Made by a program: the position numbers and the translations under genes. This document shows positions 15,068 through 25,695 of a stretch of DNA of 64,000 bases, in pieces. The stretch lies in assembly GCA_001000675.1 (NCBI GenBank), contig LCHW01000003.1, forward strand, positions 67,873 to 131,872, in the 5' to 3' direction. This stretch comes from Candidatus Wolfebacteria bacterium GW2011_GWE2_44_13 (GTDB lineage: Bacteria; Patescibacteriota; Minisyncoccia; UBA6257; UBA9933). The first letter of the stretch is position 1; every line of letters begins with the position of its first letter. The notes under the pieces were generated by a model that worked only from the letters and a program-made list of their open reading frames with translations, was not told the origin of the DNA and made no database searches.

Positions 15068-15144
15068 GCACCCGTAGCTCAATTGGATAGAGTAGCTGCC
15101 TTCGAAGCAGTTGGTTGGGGGTTCGAGTCCCTCCGGGTGCACCA
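15068..15144 (+). tRNA. tRNA-Arg (anticodon UCG), CCA encoded
   Basis: GCACCCG acceptor. Anticodon stem GCUGC/GCAGU with loop CUUCGAA. T-loop UUCGAGU. 3' CCA present. Confidence 0.8.
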
Positions 15145-15202
15145 AGTTATATTGACGACCTCTTTTTGTTTGTACTATACTAACTTGGTATCTATTTTAT
15201 AC

Positions 15203-15274
15203 GCCCCTGTAGCTCAGCCCGGTAGAGCACCTGCCTTTTAAGCAGTGTGTCGATGGTTCAAATCCATCCGGGGG
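15203..15274 (+). tRNA. tRNA-Lys (anticodon UUU), no encoded CCA
   Basis: GCCCCUG acceptor. D-stem GCUC/GAGC. Anticodon loop CUUUUAA. T-loop UUCAAAU. Confidence 0.8.
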
Positions 15275-15338
15275 CACATAGTCAATTCATATTAATTGAC
15301 TAACAATAACAGTTTCTCTATGATGAGGACGTTATAAT

Positions 15339-15414
15339 GCATCTCTAGCTCAATTGGTAGAGCAGGGGCCTCTTAAGCCCAAGGTTCCGGGTTCGATTCC
15401 CGGGGGATGCACCA
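15339..15414 (+). tRNA. tRNA-Lys (anticodon CUU), CCA encoded; abutted by recombinase gene
   Basis: GCAUCUC acceptor. Anticodon loop CUCUUAA. T-loop UUCGAUU. The 3' half is overlapped by the end of the 15350..17077 ORF. Confidence 0.8.
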
Positions 15415-17077
15415 CATGGGTTTCCGCATTGTCGGAAGCCTTAGAAAGCTGGAAAATCCAAGTCAATTTGGGTGTTCCATTACATATTTCTTCATACGTT
15501 GGAGTTTCTTCAAACACAAGCCCGAATAAGGCCTGTTGTTGCATGATATTCGTTGTGTTTAACAGCATTTCCGCGGGGTGTTCCATTATTTTTTTCGCGT
15601 CCCTAATAAAGTCGTCGATATCCCGCTCGGTGATCTCCATCTTGTTCCGTTCGGTTTGAGCACTTCTCATTCGTCGATCAATTGCTTCTATTTCTTTTTC
15701 TATCACTTGCCTGACCACGTCACTACCGGTGGCAATAAATGCCTTCACGGCTTGTGCCTTTTCTGCTTCGAGCTCGGACACATTAAGGCTGACTTCTGAC
15801 GCAACCTGCATAATCTCCCCTTGTCTCTCTCGGTAGCGATCAAGCAATACAGTATGCAAGCTGTTTATGATTTCCGGCTGAAAGTGTAGGTCGTTAATAA
15901 ACTTTTCGACAGATGCGTCAAAAGTCTCTTTTTTTATTCCAATATATTTGTGATCTCGGGCGCAGTGGTATGTCGGAAATCCCGCCCCGCTTTTACCCTT
16001 CGGAGAACTACCCAAAAATGGCTTCTTACAAATTGGACATAAGATACTCTTGTATGGGAACAGTGGGTTATTCCGCATGCGTTTATAAACAACGAGATCC
16101 GGGTGGTAATCATAGAGTGCCTCCAAAAAGTCCCCGTCTTTGCGGATAAATACTTTCCCCCTATTGGCAGCATTAAATGTCTCTATGGATACAAGCCCTT
16201 CATAAGCCGCCTTTACCGGCTTGTAATTCGTCCACTTCTCTACCAGAACCCCACAATAGATAGGCTTTCTTATGTGCTGTTGTAGTTTTTTAACATTTAA
16301 GACGCACTCTCCCGTTTGCCCAATTATTTCTTGATGGGTCGCCTTATCAAATTTGTTACGGAGCTTAGTTCTATACCCCATGGCATTTACCCTATCGACA
16401 ATCTCAATATCCGTGTACTGTCCCAATGCCCTCATTTCAAGCATGGCTATATAATACTTCGCTCGTTCAGGATCTGCGACTTGAATAGTACGCTTCTTGC
16501 CTCCAACATAAACCTTTTTATTAATATATCCATCTTGTGGAGCATTTGCCTTATACCCTTGTTGGGTTAGCCAAATTTCCTGTCCTATCATCCGTGTCAG
16601 GATTTTTGTAACCTCATCTTTTGCCGTTGTAGCAAGGACCACTTCCGATACTTCGCTCGGGGAAGATTGGCTCCACTCATATCCGAATCCATAATTTTCA
16701 AGCGTATTATAAGATGGCTGAATAATTCCATTCGTATCAAACATCTCCACCCCTCGCTTCATGAGTTCTCGCTTTATAAGTCCGTAAGCATCGGCTCCTC
16801 CTCGAGTACACCTGTCAATCGCCTTAAATACATAGTACTGAACTTTGCCGGGATTTTTATCAATAAAAGCGAGTATCTCCTGAAAAACAGGCCGCTGCTT
16901 TTTCCTTCCCGAAAAGCTTTCAAGCCATGGATCGTGCATAAGCTTCCACCCTTTTGCAATCGTTATTCTTTCACAGTTTTTGCTTTGCTCGCCCAAACTC
17001 TCCCCTTCTTGTGCCTGTTTAGTAGAGCTCACACGGCAGTGTATAATACAACCTTTTTGTTGATTATCTTTATTCAT
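15350..17077 (-). CDS. large serine recombinase (integrase); last ~22 codons are read-through of tRNA-Lys
   Basis: 575 aa. Catalytic IIHCRVSSTKQ resolvase domain. Recombinase domain. Zn ribbon CPICKKP...YHCARDH. Coiled coil. The C-terminus ..VVHPPGIEPGTLGLRGP is tRNA sequence. Confidence 0.8.
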   Translation of the reverse strand: MNKDNQQKGCIIHCRVSSTKQAQEGESLGEQSKNCERITIAKGWKLMHDPWLESFSGRKKQRPVFQEILAFIDKNPGKVQYYVFKAIDRCTRGGADAYGLIKRELMKRGVEMFDTNGIIQPSYNTLENYGFGYEWSQSSPSEVSEVVLATTAKDEVTKILTRMIGQEIWLTQQGYKANAPQDGYINKKVYVGGKKRTIQVADPERAKYYIAMLEMRALGQYTDIEIVDRVNAMGYRTKLRNKFDKATHQEIIGQTGECVLNVKKLQQHIRKPIYCGVLVEKWTNYKPVKAAYEGLVSIETFNAANRGKVFIRKDGDFLEALYDYHPDLVVYKRMRNNPLFPYKSILCPICKKPFLGSSPKGKSGAGFPTYHCARDHKYIGIKKETFDASVEKFINDLHFQPEIINSLHTVLLDRYRERQGEIMQVASEVSLNVSELEAEKAQAVKAFIATGSDVVRQVIEKEIEAIDRRMRSAQTERNKMEITERDIDDFIRDAKKIMEHPAEMLLNTTNIMQQQALFGLVFEETPTYEEICNGTPKLTWIFQLSKASDNAETHVVHPPGIEPGTLGLRGPCSTN

Positions 17078-18244: not shown

Positions 18245-19342
18245 TTATTGAACTATTTTATAGTCTATATACCCGGAATCGTCATATTGTCCGCCACCGA
18301 ATCGATAGTACCCAGCGCTAATTGCCCTTATATGCCAGACCAATCGAAATGTTTCTCCGACTGATTTTAAATCTTCCTCCGTTATTTTATACTCAAGTGT
18401 ATTATTAGATACATACTTAAGTCTGTTATTTTCAAGCGAAACGGAGTCCATGAACGGCCTTGAGTTAGATTCCCAATTATATTCAATTCCTCTTCCCTGT
18501 GGATCTTTAGCTATAACAGTTGCCTTGAACGTATCCCCTACGCGTAAAATTCGTGATCCTTCGCTCGGCCAGCTGATGTAGGGACCCTTGTATTGGTTGT
18601 ACATAGATGTTTTATATGTATTTCCCTTACTATCTTCGAGGGAAAGAATTATAGGATACTGCTCATGTTCGGTATATGTATCCCGCTGTTCCTTTAGACG
18701 CTCTTCTTCGGCGTGTATCCTCTCTTCCTCTATTCGCTTGCGGTCCGCCTCTGCACTTTCTTGGTTACGCCTCAAAAGATCTGCTTGAATTTTTTCTCCA
18801 TCAACTCTATTCTGTTCGTCTATTAGTTTTCTATACGCTTCCTCTCGTGAGGACCTATCCTGCGTAGTGTTTTGGACTTTACCACTTAGCTGTACCGGAG
18901 ATTCTGCGAGGATTTTTTCAGAGCTCTTCGCGATATTTCTCGACTGTTCTAAGCTCTGGAACCGCCTCACGGCCCGCGCAGTCAGCTTGCCATAATAGCC
19001 GGTTATAATGCCTTCCGGGTAGATATTGATATCTGCCGCCAAAATCGTCTGGAGCGTCCTTACCTTCTCCCCGGATGAACCTTCTTTAAGTTGTTCAATC
19101 AACTGCAAGACATCAGTCATACCGACGGTATTAGTTGCTGTCTGCGGTTGAGCTTGTGCCTTCTGTAATGTTTGTAATTGTACAGTCAAACTTTCAATCT
19201 GTTTTTGTAGGGTCTGGATTAACGACTGCAGTGTCGCGGTTGTGGTTGATGCAGTCGTGGTCGTTTGTGCCGATGCAACGAACGCGTTGCCAAATATGAT
19301 CCCGACTACCAGTATGGTTACTATGTTTCTTTTTATGTTCAT
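18245..19342 (-). CDS. secreted protein with coiled coil and peptidoglycan-binding (PG_binding_1-like) domain
   Basis: 365 aa. Signal peptide ...FVASAQTTTT. GEKVRTLQTILAADINIYPEGIITGYYGKLTARAVRRFQ. Paralogous N-terminal architecture to 60775..61836. Confidence 0.55.
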   Translation of the reverse strand: MNIKRNIVTILVVGIIFGNAFVASAQTTTTASTTTATLQSLIQTLQKQIESLTVQLQTLQKAQAQPQTATNTVGMTDVLQLIEQLKEGSSGEKVRTLQTILAADINIYPEGIITGYYGKLTARAVRRFQSLEQSRNIAKSSEKILAESPVQLSGKVQNTTQDRSSREEAYRKLIDEQNRVDGEKIQADLLRRNQESAEADRKRIEEERIHAEEERLKEQRDTYTEHEQYPIILSLEDSKGNTYKTSMYNQYKGPYISWPSEGSRILRVGDTFKATVIAKDPQGRGIEYNWESNSRPFMDSVSLENNRLKYVSNNTLEYKITEEDLKSVGETFRLVWHIRAISAGYYRFGGGQYDDSGYIDYKIVQ

Positions 19343-19662: not shown

Positions 19663-20055
19663 TTATCTACAGGACGAGGGCGGCTTTCGGTTTACGTATA
19701 GCGTTTGATATCCTGGATCTGTCTGAGTACTTGTCTTACATTCTGGACATCCATGGAACGCGCGATTTGCTCCGGGGCGCATTCGTACGGTTTTACTGTT
19801 CACATCCCAACAACGAGAGCAGAATGGGCCCTCCTCTTTTTCCCCTATTTTCCAATAAGCACCATTTCTGAATTCAAGACTATCCCTCACTTTAAGCAGC
19901 TCCTTTAATGCTCGATTCTCAATTTCAAGATCATAGATATGCTTTTGCTGATCAAGTAACTCTTTTTGAACAACTAAAATCTGCTCATATTGTTCAATCT
20001 TCCCAGCCTCTTTTAAAACAGCGGCTGCTGATTTTAATTCATCAAATATAGCCAT
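19663..20055 (-). CDS. hypothetical protein: coiled coil + C-terminal zinc ribbon
   Basis: 130 aa. CSRCWD...HGCPEC. Confidence 0.4.
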   Translation of the reverse strand: MAIFDELKSAAAVLKEAGKIEQYEQILVVQKELLDQQKHIYDLEIENRALKELLKVRDSLEFRNGAYWKIGEKEEGPFCSRCWDVNSKTVRMRPGANRAFHGCPECKTSTQTDPGYQTLYVNRKPPSSCR

Positions 20056-20272: not shown

Positions 20273-21550
20273 TTAAGCTTGCAAATCCTGCTCCACCTCA
20301 ATCTCCGCCTCAAGCGCCTTATTCCATCTCTCAAGATAGTCAATATTCTTTTTGACAATTTCTTCATCCAATGGGGAGTACTTCTGATGCGCAGCTGTCA
20401 GATTCGCTATTAGATCGGCCAGACTCGTTTGCTCAATCGTATTCAATTCCATCTCTCGCGTATAAATAAAGTGGCGCTGTGCCTTTGAATGATCAACTTC
20501 GAGGGCAATAATATTGTCGGGGTCACTCTGAATAAGTGCCATGCTCTTTTTACACTCGATGTCGAGCAAACTGGCGTATCTCATATCCCTTAAAAGAGCA
20601 ATTGCCGTAGGGATTGCGAAAAATTCGTGAATGCCACGTATATAATATCTTGACGGAGGCCCCCCTCCTATTTTACTTACCCTGGCCTTTACCTCGCCAT
20701 AAAAAATGCCATTACAAACTCCGGTCATTCCAAGCTTACCCAATAGCAGAGAAAAGTAGCTCCCATAAAGATTTGTAACCTTAACATCTCTTTCCTTTGC
20801 AATTTTCACGAACGAAACAAGCTTTTTCAGCTTATTAATATCGGCAGTCTTTTCGTTTATATCATCTATCCAAATAAAAATCTCATCACATCCGGTGTAT
20901 TCCTTGATCAGACCCTCCGTAAGACTGTGAGAGTTTGTTGAGATTATTGGAATAACTTTCCCCGCAGTCTTTTCTTTTGTTTTGGCTAAAAGTTTCTTAT
21001 TTATACCAAGCCACTCATCAGCGAGATCGTTAAAATAAAAATATGGGGGAATAATTGCAATTGGCTTAAGCCCCCCTCCCTCTCCTTTTACTAAGTGCTC
21101 TGCGCCATTTTTAATGAGAAATTTTTCATATTTTTTAATAGCGCGCCCTCTCTCACTCTCCATCTTCTGAGTCTGTAGTATGATGTTTTTTTCGCAAAAG
21201 CTATCGATAAAATCATCCGTAAAATCTGCAGGGCGAAGGGCTGCGTATGCCGAATTGGTAAAGTGGCTACTTAGACCATAATCCGTAGTTAATTTCGCTA
21301 TTGAAGGTTTAAATTTACTTTCACCAGTTTTTTTGTCCGGGACTACATAGTCCGCTATATTGTTAAGCGCATAAATATATGTCATGGGATCAATGTAATA
21401 TCCCTTATTAATATACTCGGCCGCCATGATAGTAGGATTTGAAGAGTACGAAAGAATGTGGGCTGGAATGAAAATGCCAGAAATTAATCCTCTGAGTTCT
21501 TTTATAACCTCCCTATCCCTATGGACGCCGAATCTGATAAAAAAGTTCAT
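20273..21550 (-). CDS. hypothetical 425-aa protein, last gene of 4-gene overlapping operon; no recognisable family
   Basis: 4-bp overlap with the upstream gene. No Walker, HEPN or other motif recognised by eye. Confidence 0.5.
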   Translation of the reverse strand: MNFFIRFGVHRDREVIKELRGLISGIFIPAHILSYSSNPTIMAAEYINKGYYIDPMTYIYALNNIADYVVPDKKTGESKFKPSIAKLTTDYGLSSHFTNSAYAALRPADFTDDFIDSFCEKNIILQTQKMESERGRAIKKYEKFLIKNGAEHLVKGEGGGLKPIAIIPPYFYFNDLADEWLGINKKLLAKTKEKTAGKVIPIISTNSHSLTEGLIKEYTGCDEIFIWIDDINEKTADINKLKKLVSFVKIAKERDVKVTNLYGSYFSLLLGKLGMTGVCNGIFYGEVKARVSKIGGGPPSRYYIRGIHEFFAIPTAIALLRDMRYASLLDIECKKSMALIQSDPDNIIALEVDHSKAQRHFIYTREMELNTIEQTSLADLIANLTAAHQKYSPLDEEIVKKNIDYLERWNKALEAEIEVEQDLQA

Positions 21551-21957
21551 GCTAATTTTAAATTATTACTGCAGAAATAAGCTCGAATTACCTTGCTGGA
21601 ACTATTTCCTCCTGGCTCAATTTCGACCCGTGGTTTGAATTCTTCATTGATCACTATTAACCCAACTCCAGCATTTTCGAAAATTTTCCTATTATTTAAT
21701 GCTGGCGTGGCATGCTGATGCCAAACAGCGAGATAGGATTGATCACAAGCAAGCGCGTTTACTCTTGCCTGTCTAAGACCACACTGCCAATCTTTAAGTT
21801 TAATCTCGATAGCTACAACATTCTCATCGTCCCTTTCTTTCTTCACAATGTCAATCCTTTTGCGTGCAAAAGCTGCTTGTCGTAGTACAATACAATCTTG
21901 TGATCGATAATATGAGGCAAGCTTCACCTCGACTTTTTTTTCTGTTATTTTAGACAT
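21547..21957 (-). CDS. small PD-(D/E)xK nuclease-fold protein (restriction-endonuclease-like)
   Basis: 136 aa. RIDIV...(15)...VVAIEIK gives a D...ExK arrangement. Overlaps both neighbours by 4 and 8 bp. Confidence 0.45.
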   Translation of the reverse strand: MSKITEKKVEVKLASYYRSQDCIVLRQAAFARKRIDIVKKERDDENVVAIEIKLKDWQCGLRQARVNALACDQSYLAVWHQHATPALNNRKIFENAGVGLIVINEEFKPRVEIEPGGNSSSKVIRAYFCSNNLKLA

Positions 21958-22606
21958 TTTTGAGATTATCTATAGTTTTCTCGTTTAAAACATATTTTCC
22001 CCCAAAAACTAAGACTATGCATTGCAAGACTAACCACCCCACAGCCCCCCAGGAAGAAATTGGGGAATTCTTTGTTGCAATAATCACTATCCCATCTATT
22101 ATTTGCAAGCAAGATAGGACAGCAACCCCAAGTGCTATTGTATTATTTTGCCTTGAGCATTTTTTAAGCACAACCCTACTCTTCTTCCCTTTTATGAGAT
22201 TTTCTAACTTAACTTGAAACTCAATTACTTCTTCGATTGCCTTATACTGGATACTTTTAAGCCCTTTAATGAGCTCCAATTTATACTCATCTTGGAAAAA
22301 ATCTTTAACATCTGTACCTTCAGGAATATCTGAGATTCGTCGAGAAACTTCCTCAACAAGATTATCCGCAAGAACGTCGCGTAGCGGGGCAACCATGTCG
22401 GTGTATATTCTTTCGTCTAATATATCTTGTATCTGCGTATCCCTATCTCCGTTAATATGATTGTAATGCATCCATAATCTAATAGACCCCACCAAAAATA
22501 GAATGGGTATTGCAAAAATTGCGAACTCCTGGATATTTGTGGTTATCAGTAGCGACTTAATCGCATCTAAATTTGACGTAGTCGCAATTGTGCTGGTCGT
22601 CATCAT
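21950..22606 (-). CDS. membrane protein (1 N-terminal + 2 C-terminal TM), candidate toxin/effector
   Basis: 218 aa. FAIFAIPILFLVGSIRLW. IALGVAVLSCLQIIDGIVIIA. WGAVGWLVLQCIVLVFGG. Sits immediately downstream of the Panacea-domain gene. Confidence 0.45.
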   Translation of the reverse strand: MMTTSTIATTSNLDAIKSLLITTNIQEFAIFAIPILFLVGSIRLWMHYNHINGDRDTQIQDILDERIYTDMVAPLRDVLADNLVEEVSRRISDIPEGTDVKDFFQDEYKLELIKGLKSIQYKAIEEVIEFQVKLENLIKGKKSRVVLKKCSRQNNTIALGVAVLSCLQIIDGIVIIATKNSPISSWGAVGWLVLQCIVLVFGGKYVLNEKTIDNLKNV

Positions 22607-23163
22607 TTTAATACCTGATGCTTAATTTCTGAATTTACAGTCATATCCGGATAATTCTCATAGACGTACTTTAAAAGCTGTCTAAGAGGCCAGTTCCCGT
22701 ATCGTACTTTTATTGCCTCTATACTATTTCGACTCTTACTATCAAGTTCGCCCCAGAGCTCTTTAGCAACCGCTTCGCCAATATCCGTTAATTTAAATTC
22801 AACATCGACCTCAGAATTGTCTGGGGGAATTTCTTCAAACTGAATATCGTCAATGTATTTAATCTGCTCAGGACTTATTTCGGTACTCTGTCCCGTTCTT
22901 TTTGCAATTCCTTTTACGAGTGGGTGTTCTGGGTCGGGAAAATTACGCAAGAACTCAAGTTCGGGATAAACTTCGCTCGAAAACGGGCCCATTTTATATG
23001 GGGCGAAAGAAAATTTATCATTAATACCTTCTTCTCTGTCGAGGAGGAATAGCAGCTTCATAAGGCGCGTGATGCCTTGGATCGACTCACTGGATTGTCC
23101 TTTCATTCCTCTACTGTAGAGTAAAAGCAAGATTAAATCCGATTTTTCAAGTGTACCGATCAT
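22603..23163 (-). CDS. Panacea domain (DUF4065, SocA/PanA-like) protein, antitoxin-type
   Basis: 186 aa. ITRLMKLLFLLD...FSFAPYKMGPFSSEVY matches the DUF4065 core (KLqKLLYfaqg...FeAWkyGPVvpsvY). A TATAAT sits 6-11 nt upstream of the ATG with no SD, so the mRNA may be leaderless. Confidence 0.55.
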   Translation of the reverse strand: MIGTLEKSDLILLLLYSRGMKGQSSESIQGITRLMKLLFLLDREEGINDKFSFAPYKMGPFSSEVYPELEFLRNFPDPEHPLVKGIAKRTGQSTEISPEQIKYIDDIQFEEIPPDNSEVDVEFKLTDIGEAVAKELWGELDSKSRNSIEAIKVRYGNWPLRQLLKYVYENYPDMTVNSEIKHQVLK

Positions 23164-23229
23164 ATATTATATTATAGATTAATTAAACTCATTCTACCAG
23201 TAAAATTGTCTTCCTCACTATCGGCACCG

Positions 23230-23694
23230 TTACTCATCTTCATCCTCCTCGTCCAGCGCCCTTTCATACGCCTCAGCTGCTGCGAGCTCAGCTTTTGTCG
23301 GGAGGTGCTGTTCCTCCGTCTTTATCTCCCCGCCGTGCTGGATCCCCTGTAACGGTTTTCCTTGCGTGCGATCGAAGTACTCCTTGATCGCGGCAATGTT
23401 CTTACGGTTATGCCCCTCACTATAGAGCACATCGAGAAGGGCTTGCACCCTCGTCTTGGTAACAATCCTTGTTCCCCCAGTCGCCTTATCTACTTCTACG
23501 ACATCCACCTCTTCGAGTATATGAGCATCGTGGATTGCTTTTATTTCTAATCTTTCCAGCTTATCCTGGTTTGACTTTCTTCCCGATCCCGGCCGAAATC
23601 CTCCCCGTCCAATTCCATTGGGGATATATTTTTTTCCGCTCTTTACCGTTCCGCGTTCGAATTCCTTATTTTTTGATTTCTCTTCTTTTTTCAT
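23230..23694 (-). CDS. hypothetical protein, basic Gly-rich N-terminus (GRGGFRPGSGRK), acidic C-terminus
   Basis: 154 aa. 66 bp upstream of the Panacea operon. Confidence 0.35.
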   Translation of the reverse strand: MKKEEKSKNKEFERGTVKSGKKYIPNGIGRGGFRPGSGRKSNQDKLERLEIKAIHDAHILEEVDVVEVDKATGGTRIVTKTRVQALLDVLYSEGHNRKNIAAIKEYFDRTQGKPLQGIQHGGEIKTEEQHLPTKAELAAAEAYERALDEEDEDE

Positions 23695-23903
23695 TTTATC
23701 AATTTCACCCTTACTCTCTTTCTCTTCTTGTTCTATTCCCTATGAGGTATGAATGCATACTATATACCTGCACAATTATTGCCTTATTTTACTCCCCTTA
23801 TTAAACATATACTTGTATGCCATACGTGGCGAATACATTTTTCCAGTGTAATACGGTCTGTTCTATGGTGTTCCATCCAACACCCAAGTCGTGCACCAAA
23901 AAC

Positions 23904-23938
23904 AAAAACCACCAGCCCAAGGCTGGTGGTTTTTGTTT
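23904..23938. repeat. hairpin repeat copy 1 AAAAACCACCAGCCCAAGGCTGGTGGTTTTTGTTT (bidirectional terminator-like)
   Basis: Identical to copy 2 at 24511..24546 and near-identical to copy 3 at 25658..25690. Confidence 0.8.
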
Positions 23939-24467: not shown

Positions 24468-24510
24468 TTCCCCGCCGCCATGTCTTATGACCTCTGGCGG
24501 CTTTTTTATC

Positions 24511-24546
24511 AAAAACCACCAGCCCAAGGCTGGTGGTTTTTGTTTT
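24511..24546. repeat. hairpin repeat copy 2
   Basis: Same 35-bp sequence as copy 1. Confidence 0.8.
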
Positions 24547-24599: not shown

Positions 24600-25601
24600 C
24601 TACAGAGCTCTATACAGCTCACCTGCTTTCTCTTTAGCTTTGTCGAAGACGTCGGCCGGAATTTTACTGTAGTCTTGAATAAATTCGAGGAACCACTCCG
24701 GGATTGCATCTGCTCGTATGGGCGAAATTAGCTGCCTAATTTTCCCATCAATGTTCTTCGTAAATACTTCGCAGTCAGATTTCCATTCCCTGTGCTCCAT
24801 CAACGTCTTGACGTCATTAATCGAGTGAATGTATTCCATTATCCGGGCTTCAACAAGTTTTTCTGGTATGGAGCCTTCTTCGGTTCTGCGCCAGTAGTCA
24901 TCCAGCGTATCCGCGCTGCGCGTTGTCGACAGAAGCGCCTGTATTCGAGCCCCGATTAGTTTCCGGGGTTCGGAGTTTTCGCTTGTTCGCTGCCAATACC
25001 TCACGAGGTTGTCGAAATCGACAGCTAGCAGAAGAATCCCTGGAAGGAGCTTCGCTATGCGATTCTCAATGAGCCGCTGCGGTATCGTATTATCAGCGAC
25101 GCTTTCCCAGTAATCCAGAAGGAGCTCCATGTCCGTTATAAGCGGAATAAGCTCTGCCATGCGATTCTCAATGAGCCGCTGCGGCGGGGAATCTTCACTT
25201 GTAGCACTCCAATACGCAATAAGCACTTCGATGCTTGTAACGGACGGGAGGACTTCCAAAAGGAGCTCCGCCATACGAGCCTCGATAAGGCGCTGCGGCA
25301 CAGATTTTGCACTGGTATTTCCCCAGTATCCGCACAACAGCTCCATGTCGGTAACTCCCGGGAGAATCACTGACAAAACCTCTGCCATGCGATTCTCGAC
25401 GAGTCGCTGCAACACCGACCCTTCATTCGTTCCCTCCCAGCACCCTATCAGGTCGTCAATGTCGGTGGTGGTAGAAATCTTTAAAATCGCTTTTTCTCCT
25501 CCAATTTCTTTGCCGATAAAGTTCCCAAGAATGTTTCTTGCGTCATGCATCGCCCTGCTCCTTTCTCTAGTTATTTTTTTAGTGCTGAGATTATTCAACA
25601 C
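24600..25601 (-). CDS. tandem-repeat protein (about 6 x 34-38 aa repeats, consensus ..ELL..YW..TSE.S.PQRLIENRMAELL..)
   Basis: 333 aa. The repeats are visible at the DNA level, e.g. gccatgcgattctcaatgagccgctgcgg recurs around 25050, 25160 and 25380. Confidence 0.5.
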   Translation of the reverse strand: MLNNLSTKKITRERSRAMHDARNILGNFIGKEIGGEKAILKISTTTDIDDLIGCWEGTNEGSVLQRLVENRMAEVLSVILPGVTDMELLCGYWGNTSAKSVPQRLIEARMAELLLEVLPSVTSIEVLIAYWSATSEDSPPQRLIENRMAELIPLITDMELLLDYWESVADNTIPQRLIENRIAKLLPGILLLAVDFDNLVRYWQRTSENSEPRKLIGARIQALLSTTRSADTLDDYWRRTEEGSIPEKLVEARIMEYIHSINDVKTLMEHREWKSDCEVFTKNIDGKIRQLISPIRADAIPEWFLEFIQDYSKIPADVFDKAKEKAGELYRAL

Positions 25602-25657: not shown

Positions 25658-25690
25658 CAAAAACCACCAGCCTTAGGCTGGTGGTTTTTG
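25658..25690. repeat. hairpin repeat copy 3 (CCACCAGCCTTAGGCTGGTGG), also the terminator of pyk
   Basis: 2-nt loop difference from copies 1 and 2. Confidence 0.7.
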
Positions 25691-25695
25691 ATTTC

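Follow-up and report, generated by a model that had tools for sequence, protein, structure and literature searches.

The DNA analysed here, referred to below as the window, is a stretch of 64,000 nucleotides from Candidatus Wolfebacteria bacterium GW2011_GWE2_44_13 (contig LCHW01000003.1, positions 67,873 to 131,872 of the forward strand), and it carries an operon of four overlapping genes that we designate A, B, C and D in their order of transcription (Table 1). The genes run head to tail on the minus strand, with gene A first. Their overlaps, 4 bp at the A/B junction (ATGA), 8 bp at the B/C junction (ATGTCTAA) and 4 bp at the C/D junction (ATGA), recur as the same 4/8/4 pattern in an orthologous locus (L001) from a second genome of the Candidate Phyla Radiation (CPR). 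The window itself is from a CPR bacterium, and its proteins are identical to entries under the names ACD_81C00100 / Candidatus Wolfebacteria. Since homologues are found in the same order in dozens of unrelated genomes, the four genes are not chance open reading frames (ORFs). Together they form a cassette that is a conserved, mobile unit, in which A, C and D are constant and the fourth component is interchangeable, being a transmembrane (TM) protein, a PIN domain or a SIR2 protein. An earlier note on this DNA had recognised the four overlapping genes, which our analysis bears out at positions 20273-23163, and had taken 20273-23694 as the module. That wider span is incorrect: it takes in a fifth ORF, separated from gene A by 66 bp, which is not part of the cassette. 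The product of this ORF has no family match in Pfam, NCBIfam, PADLOC or PHROG, and the ORF is absent from all 90 related loci compared.

Table 1. Genes of the cassette, neighbouring features of the window and two plasmid-borne cassettes.
Feature	Sequence	Coordinates	Strand	Description
Gene A	Window	22603-23163	(-)	186 aa, ATG start
Gene B	Window	21950-22606	(-)	218 aa, ATG start
Gene C	Window	21547-21957	(-)	136 aa, ATG start
Gene D	Window	20273-21550	(-)	425 aa, ATG start
Upstream ORF	Window	23230-23694	(-)	154 aa; within the span of the earlier note, outside the cassette
Large serine recombinase	Window	15350-17077	(-)	Pfam Resolvase 2.9e-12, Recombinase 2.3e-5
tRNA-Lys(ctt)	Window	15339-15414	(+)	ARAGORN
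Cassette A-B-C-D (L090)	Arthrobacter sp. AK-1 mobilisable plasmid pSI-1, NC_010494.1	61825-64653		Next to a relaxase
Cassette A-C-D (L089)	Haloarcula marismortui plasmid pNG400, NC_006392.1	5078-7314		Next to an HNH endonuclease and ParA

Gene A carries the motif TRLMKLLFLL...FSFAPYKMGPFSSEVY, on which its previous assignment to the DUF4065/Panacea family had been based. This assignment holds for the family and less well for the single protein: the quoted motif is present and 20 of the 37 relatives match Pfam PF13274 (SocA_Panacea) at E<0.01 (best 2.2e-7), but the window protein scores only 15.3 bits (E 0.04), under the gathering threshold of 25.7. We therefore call A Panacea-like on the strength of these relatives and of a fold match to the antitoxin (toxin-binding) domain of DarG (PDB 7yk3), and not on its own score. 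The fold consists of a winged helix and a helical bundle, as in solved Panacea relatives; PADLOC DarG models match ten of the relatives, and UniRef names the protein 'Antitoxin SocA-like Panacea domain-containing'. Gene A also matches PADLOC PDC-M19A (2.6e-13), but over about 50 residues of a 294-position model, and the cassette differs from the candidate system PDC-M19 in that A alone matches it, the other proteins matching no PDC-M19 model. The protein is acidic (net charge -8, which is also the family median), and it is found in nearly all loci with enough upstream sequence. Gene A thus appears to encode a divergent Panacea/DarG-C-like protein, a putative antitoxin-like regulator or adaptor.

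The product of gene B had been described as a protein with three TM segments, and hydropathy indeed finds three hydrophobic segments, at residues 19-48, 155-180 and 182-208. They define a topology in which a soluble helical stretch of about 100 aa separates one N-terminal TM helix from two C-terminal ones. This arrangement is kept in about 40 loci while the sequence diverges fast, with just 21-43% identity among CPR relatives. No family was found for gene B in Pfam, NCBIfam, PADLOC or PHROG, and the same is true of its 35 counterparts (36 members in all, without a consistent Pfam family). Membrane-depolarising toxins with C-terminal TM helices are validated partners of PanA antitoxins (Kurata et al. 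2022, PMC8832971). We regard gene B as encoding a putative membrane-disrupting effector in a variable slot of the cassette.

Gene C shows the pattern E...D...ExK...Q that is typical of PD-(D/E)xK nucleases, in agreement with its earlier identification as a member of this fold. Six positions (E6, D36, E51, K53, W57 and Q63) are invariant across 31 sequences, and D36, E51, K53 and Q63, which include the active-site residues, are 100% conserved across 67 unique sequences. A direct homologue search with gene C gave just four proteins. Weak profile matches fall nearly all within the PD-(D/E)xK clan, to MTES_1575 in 9 of 31 sequences (best 6e-4) and further to SfsA, UPF0102, YhcG_C, Mrr_cat_2, MmcB-like and Cas4, and there are weak matches to PDB entries 3dnx (E 0.057) and 3fov (E 0.87). 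With a net charge of +7, gene C is, judged by its sequence, a basic PD-(D/E)xK nuclease-fold protein with an apparently intact active site.

Gene D had been taken for an ORFan, a description that no longer applies. It has 44 close homologues, and a profile search of 1.84 billion cluster representatives (clusters at 50% identity) returned 987 at E<=1e-3, of which 561 reach E<=1e-30. No Pfam domain was detected on window D or on the ten distant representatives scanned, and no NCBIfam match on window D. The structure prediction that the earlier note had called for gave a confident AlphaFold2 model (predicted local distance difference test score, pLDDT, 93.6; predicted template-modelling score, pTM, 0.92), an irregular (beta/alpha)8 TIM barrel closest to the tRNA-guanine transglycosylase (TGT) enzymes, namely TGT, DpdA and Cap10, with TGT and DpdA scoring above Cap10. 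The superfamily (Pfam PF01702) further comprises ArcTGT and QTRT2. Since D is a TIM barrel of the TGT superfamily and not an ORFan, the likely mechanism of the cassette changes. On its model, D is best described as a barrel of the TGT/DpdA/Cap10 superfamily and a putative base-flipping sensor or enzyme. The family has no existing annotation and no Pfam model, and D founds it as a new TGT-fold family.

Sequence conservation in the D family is in keeping with this fold. A zinc motif, CxCxxC, lies downstream of the barrel, its Cys residues being 78%, 87% and 89% conserved in 202 members, and it is followed after 24 residues by a His that is 99% conserved in the same 202 sequences. The motif is found in 131 of 143 representatives, and CxCxxC...H matches the zinc signature of TGT, which in E. 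coli Tgt reads CDCYTC...H with a spacing of 26. In CPR relatives of window D, Cys residues of the motif are replaced, and the D copy of Arthrobacter plasmid pSI-1 is wholly without CxCxxC. Other conserved residues, rich in aromatics, are placed by the model at the C-terminal ends of barrel strands (D54-P55-x-T57, P169-Y170-F171, W227, G263, G281/Y284/G285/E286 and Y303), in a cluster that would fit a ligand or base pocket; conservation also extends to H360, E368 and W409, in the helical C-terminal part past the barrel, and to Q126. As reference positions we used the catalytic Asp pair and the base-recognition residues of Zymomonas mobilis TGT (D102, D156, G230 and D280). D54, at the end of barrel strand 3 and 98% conserved, is a plausible equivalent of D102, and the remaining conserved acidic residues are E233 (81%), E286 (79%) and E368 (97%). 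A local match between 'NGIFYGE' of D and 'GGLAVGE' of TGT was considered and rejected, as it is not significant and conflicts with the strand-by-strand mapping of the barrel.

More than 80 loci in bacteria and archaea carry a copy of the cassette. Scanning a single genome for each GTDB species yielded 27 loci, and a metagenome scan a further 56; the sequence patterns used to draw these samples bias the variant counts given below. Hosts in the GTDB scan include Woesebacteria, Saccharibacteria, Bdellovibrionales, Planctomycetota, Acidobacteriota, Gemmatimonadales and Elusimicrobia among bacteria, and Methanoperedens, Thermoplasmata, Thorarchaeota, Heimdallarchaeota and Bathyarchaeota among archaea. 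The complete order A-B-C-D with overlapping junctions is found in CPR bacteria, Bdellovibrionales, Planctomycetota, Acidobacteriota, Gemmatimonadales and Actinomycetota (Arthrobacter pSI-1), and in Methanoperedens, Thorarchaeota, Heimdallarchaeota and Bathyarchaeota. Profiles detect A, C and D in nearly all of the 27 GTDB loci, and in 22 of them a protein of about 200 aa with B-type TM topology stands between A and C. Three loci with the same four-gene order were compared closely with the window: L001, directly downstream of the type I restriction-modification (RM) genes hsdR-hsdS-hsdM; L002, on a complete Saccharibacteria chromosome with a serine recombinase about 2 kb away; and L004, on a soil contig. 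Pairwise identities among the four amount to 39-67% for D, 45-75% for A, 37-73% for C and the 21-43% already given for B. On the L002 chromosome (CP023991.1), D is followed on the same strand by three extra genes (L002 7290-9610), of which the first two have overlapping junctions. Their products, of 378 aa (bearing zinc ribbons), 94 aa and 295 aa, were seen in no other locus.

Several observations speak of mobility. The genomic position of the cassette differs between related CPR genomes (the window and L001), and no conserved flanking gene was found around it among 149 flanking proteins. The commonest neighbours are tyrosine integrases (4 loci), resolvase-type recombinases (3 loci) and N6-methyltransferases (2 loci), so that recombinases flank the cassette in seven loci besides the window. 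Two cassettes reside on plasmids (Table 1); all cassette genes of pSI-1 are annotated as hypothetical, and gene A of pNG400 bears the annotation of a SocA-domain antitoxin. Searches of IMG/VR viral contigs and GenBank phages turned up no homologue of D, a result that counts neither for nor against defence. In the window, the last 20 or so codons of the serine recombinase gene run antisense to the 3' part of tRNA-Lys(ctt), with an overlap of 65 nt, and the cassette therefore lies in an integrative island. This upholds the integrase-bearing tRNA-Lys island proposed earlier as far as its recombinase end is concerned. A direct repeat of the tRNA-Lys 3' end was sought and none was found, which is expected for a serine recombinase and leaves the island without a pair of attachment (att) sites to mark its far boundary.

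The fourth component of the cassette is exchanged between loci. In L014 and L015 (Thermoplasmata and Heimdallarchaeota) the B slot is filled by a PIN domain (PF01850 1.5e-11, PF13470 1.7e-12), and these loci keep the overlapping junctions. Salinispira locus L028 has no B, and a 381-aa SIR2_2 protein (Pfam, 6.2e-7) overlaps the end of D instead. Among the metagenome loci, nine have the order A-C-D-SIR2, three the permuted order D-SIR2-C-A, and five are contigs that end early with D-SIR2, beside 16 to 18 loci of the type A-B(TM)-C-D. The SIR2 proteins of the cassette are homologous to each other, share the motifs GAGFS, LNWD and KLHGS, and match the PADLOC models for defence SIR2 and for Aga_SIR2, with values of 1e-8 to 4e-14. 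Two natural fusions join the components further, C with D in P0224 and the D barrel with SIR2 in L059 (4067-5908), and they indicate that D probably contacts both the nuclease and the effector. Reduced forms exist as well. In L027 (6426-9308) and L077 (4760-6935), A bears an N-terminal extension of 95-140 aa and is directly followed by D, with neither C nor B. A sigma-70-family gene precedes A-D in L027 only, and the extension of A could be an anti-sigma-like domain.

To our knowledge of the resources searched, this architecture is undescribed. A match to a described defence system was checked with PADLOC v2.0.0, in which no model matches B, C or D in any variant, the matches being limited to the Panacea-like part of A and to SIR2; no description of the gene architecture was found in the full-text literature searched. 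The suggestion that the operon is a candidate undescribed toxin-antitoxin (TA) or anti-phage module around a Panacea-like protein is thus supported, by this lack of a match and by the conserved, mobile character of the unit and its swapped effectors. The survey that described PanAT operons left out neighbourhoods longer than three genes (PMC8832971). From DarTG, the cassette differs in having no macrodomain and no DarT ADP-ribosyltransferase, and the partners are wholly different. A constant sensor with swappable SIR2, TM or nuclease effectors is a known arrangement in the short prokaryotic Argonaute (pAgo) systems SPARSA and SPARTA, Thoeris, CBASS and Lamassu. The cassette resembles these systems in its conserved core and alternating SIR2, membrane or nuclease effector, and one of the models matched by its SIR2 proteins, Aga_SIR2, is pAgo-associated; it is unlike them in that its core is unrelated to their sensors and that it has no signalling-nucleotide synthase. 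The component superfamilies and the sensor-plus-effector logic are therefore already known, and what appears to be new here is the combination of genes, the TGT-fold family and its coupling to a Panacea-like protein.

Given a constant core with an alternating TM, PIN or SIR2 effector, which is typical of abortive-infection defence, together with the fusions described above, we propose a model in which C and D carry out surveillance. We lean, with little more than even confidence, towards reading the operon as the membrane-effector variant of a widespread, undescribed four-component conflict system, most likely one of abortive-infection anti-phage defence and possibly also an addiction module. 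In this model, C and D would act as a single nucleic-acid-handling unit: D would use its TGT-like pocket to flip a purine-type base out of invading DNA, or possibly tRNA, and to read or exchange it, and C would bind and cut nucleic acid. Gene product A would bind the toxic component or components directly and so keep them silent, in the manner of Panacea antitoxins and DarG, and recognition of the trigger by C-D would relieve this inhibition. B would then depolarise or permeabilise the membrane, like the validated membrane PanT toxins (PMC8832971); in the other variants RNA would be cleaved (PIN) or NAD+ depleted (SIR2), and the infected cell would be stopped. All functional steps of the model are inferred, namely that B is toxic and is neutralised by A, which substrate D has, what acts as the trigger and that the cassette defends against phage. 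The protein neutralised by A could be B, its neighbour in the window, or it could be C, which is its neighbour in the SIR2 variants and is oppositely charged. A narrower and distinctly more tentative proposal is that the TGT-fold protein serves as an immune sensor or enzyme that flips or exchanges a guanine-family base and, with a mini-nuclease and a Panacea-type adaptor, switches on interchangeable suicide effectors (a membrane pore, PIN or SIR2).

A number of observations sit uneasily with this model. The enrichment of the cassette in defence islands is modest, since N6_Mtase neighbours occur in only 2 loci and most flanks hold housekeeping genes or genes of unknown function. Some variants have no recognisable effector, as in the A-C-D cassette of pNG400 and the A-D pairs of L027 and L077, which leaves C itself as a possible toxin. 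The partner of A is ambiguous, as A adjoins B in the window and C in the SIR2 variants. In window D, two of the three zinc Cys residues have been lost: the four positions read D330, C333, S336 and H360, and its zinc site is degenerate because D330 and S336 stand in place of two Cys. No conserved Asp was identified at the position expected for the D280 nucleophile when conservation was placed on the model, a comparison made without residue-level superposition, and D may therefore be a non-catalytic binder. The kinship of D with TGT also escapes profile comparison, as hhalign against E. coli and Z. mobilis TGT returned probabilities of 0.3% and 0.04%.

The features of C and D also lend themselves to a simpler account, in which C-D would be a direct restriction enzyme, either modification-dependent (type IV-like) or base-excising. 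D would read or excise a modified guanine, for example the 7-deazaguanine placed by a phage DpdA, and C would cleave the phage DNA, with A as an inhibitor or regulator and B, PIN or SIR2 as a back-up effector. Modification-dependent restriction enzymes are as a rule built from a reader domain coupled to a PD-(D/E)xK nuclease (PMC6765204), and the cassette resembles such enzymes, for example the PUA/SRA-nuclease fusions, in its small PD-(D/E)xK protein and base-binding domain, fused in P0224. The invariant active site of C, the binding of guanine or 7-deazaguanine by the folds closest to D, the type I RM system adjoining L001 and the recent demonstration that glycosylases against 7-deazaguanine phages are a class of defence (bioRxiv 10.1101/2025.10.29.685425) all point in the same direction. 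The cassette is unlike these enzymes in that its putative reader is a TGT-fold barrel and that it includes two further conserved proteins. We know of no TGT-fold barrel reported as the reader of a modification-dependent restriction enzyme. Moreover, an antitoxin-like protein and an interchangeable suicide effector are both conserved, although a simple restriction enzyme would have no need of either, and the D-SIR2 fusion links D to an effector and not to the nuclease alone; we consider direct restriction unlikely, though worth keeping in view. We rate slightly lower a modification-restriction system of the Dpd kind, in which D would label host DNA (or tRNA) as self by inserting a non-canonical base, C would restrict DNA that lacks the label, and A and B would regulate or localise the activity. 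Although DpdA (PDB 7ui4) is among the folds closest to D, no sequence similarity is detectable between the two, and the nucleophile Asp that such an enzyme would use is the one that we could not locate on the model. The families expected to accompany it, ParB-like DpdB, DpdC, the DpdD-K helicases or nucleases and those of preQ0 and 7-deazaguanine synthesis, are not among the 25 most frequent of the 157 families formed by the 149 flanking proteins, and no PADLOC Dpd model matches any cassette protein. The hosts include CPR bacteria, which are generally metabolically reduced, and RM systems do not exchange TM, PIN and SIR2 effectors as the cassette does.

If the surveillance model is set aside and the cassette is viewed from its first two genes, A-B could be a plain type II TA pair of the PanA-PanT kind travelling with an unrelated C-D module. 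Gene A is Panacea-like and stands first in the operon, the adjoining membrane protein has C-terminal TM helices as in the depolarising PanT toxins that were validated (PMC8832971), the cassette is found on plasmids and integrative islands, which commonly carry addiction modules, and its change of partner among TM, PIN and SIR2 proteins echoes the partner promiscuity of Panacea. It is A, C and D, however, that co-occur across phyla and domains, and B is the component that is replaced; in many loci, pNG400 among them, A accompanies C-D in the absence of B, and in the SIR2 variants A is not next to the effector. The overlapping junctions join all four genes, the D-SIR2 and C-D fusions tie the supposed passenger to the effector, and a cassette of four genes with an invariant nuclease and TGT-fold protein is unlike a PanAT operon of two or at most three genes, quite apart from the sub-threshold Pfam score of window A. 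A mere pair with a passenger accordingly strikes us as improbable. We find it very improbable that D modifies a protein, as Cap10 does in type IV CBASS (PDB 9ntn; bioRxiv 10.1101/2025.04.06.647259), for instance by adding a nucleobase to A, C or the effector and so arming the system. Cap10 belongs to the same superfamily as D, yet the D family retains the zinc subdomain that Cap10 has lost, and TGT and DpdA both score above Cap10 in fold. No CD-NTase, QueC-like Cap9 or Cap11 accompanies the cassette, neither of the first two recurs among the listed flanking families, and no PADLOC CBASS model matches any cassette protein. Least credible of all, in our estimation, is a housekeeping operon for RNA modification or repair with no role in conflict. 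In their classical role, TGT-fold enzymes modify tRNA, and many of the flanking genes are housekeeping genes, but a distribution that is patchy over both domains and extends to plasmids and recombinase islands, a genomic position that changes even between related CPR genomes, and the ties to SIR2, PIN and TM effectors and to an antitoxin-like protein are not what such an operon would lead one to expect.

The surroundings of the operon in the window add further detail. At 0.38-0.39, the GC content of the operon is slightly lower than that of the flanks, which mostly lies at 0.41-0.50; a promoter scan of the operon returned chance-level hits only, and a terminator scan found no minus-strand terminator within it. 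The tRNA gene overlapped by the recombinase is part of a cluster at 15068-15414 that comprises tRNA-Arg(tcg), tRNA-Lys(ttt) and tRNA-Lys(ctt), and the overlap suggests that the island brings its own copy of the 3' part of the tRNA. Other genes of the island, among them the upstream ORF (23230-23694) and those at 19663-20055 and 18245-19342, were considered as parts of the system and rejected, since none recurs near the cassette in the 90 loci; the sole recurrence is a weak recombinase match in L050 (20% identity, E 1.8e-07). The 365-aa protein encoded at 18245-19342 on the minus strand combines a hydrophobic segment at its N-terminus with a coiled coil and a PG_binding_1 domain (3.6e-6); it also has endolysin-type PHROG matches (5e-7) and may be what is left of a phage lysis gene. 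Between the cassette region and the gene for pyruvate kinase, three near-identical palindromes (23900-23938, 24510-24545 and 25658-25693) bracket two small gene units. They have the form AAACAAAAACCACCAGCC-N3-GGCTGGTGGTTTTTGTTT, with a perfect stem of 16-18 bp and runs of T and A on either side, and resemble bidirectional terminators; one of the three was also flagged by the terminator scan. A 333-aa ORF at 24600-25601 on the minus strand, without a family match, contains at least four tandem units spaced by 102-114 nt (34-38 aa) at 25042-25412, with the recurring peptide ...PQRLIENRMAELL...

If the proposed surveillance role of C-D with a switchable effector is correct, the cassette would represent a new immune or TA system across CPR bacteria, Planctomycetota, Actinomycetota, haloarchaea and Asgard archaea, and it would give a function to a large unannotated family of 987 representatives at 50% identity. 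If the narrower proposal of a TGT-fold immune sensor or enzyme holds, bacteria and archaea would have a class of nucleic-acid surveillance not known before, and the role would be the first assigned to this family. The cassette would also be a third use of the TGT fold in defence, after DNA modification by Dpd and protein deazaguanylation by Cap10, and one in which the fold is coupled to a nuclease as well as to an effector of the NADase, RNase or membrane type. Panacea has been proposed to be a sensor of triggers instead of a simple toxin plug (Ernits et al. 2023, PMC10440598), and the cassette offers a natural setting in which that hypothesis can be tested. The hosts of pSI-1 and pNG400 are cultured carriers and would be useful starting points for experiments.

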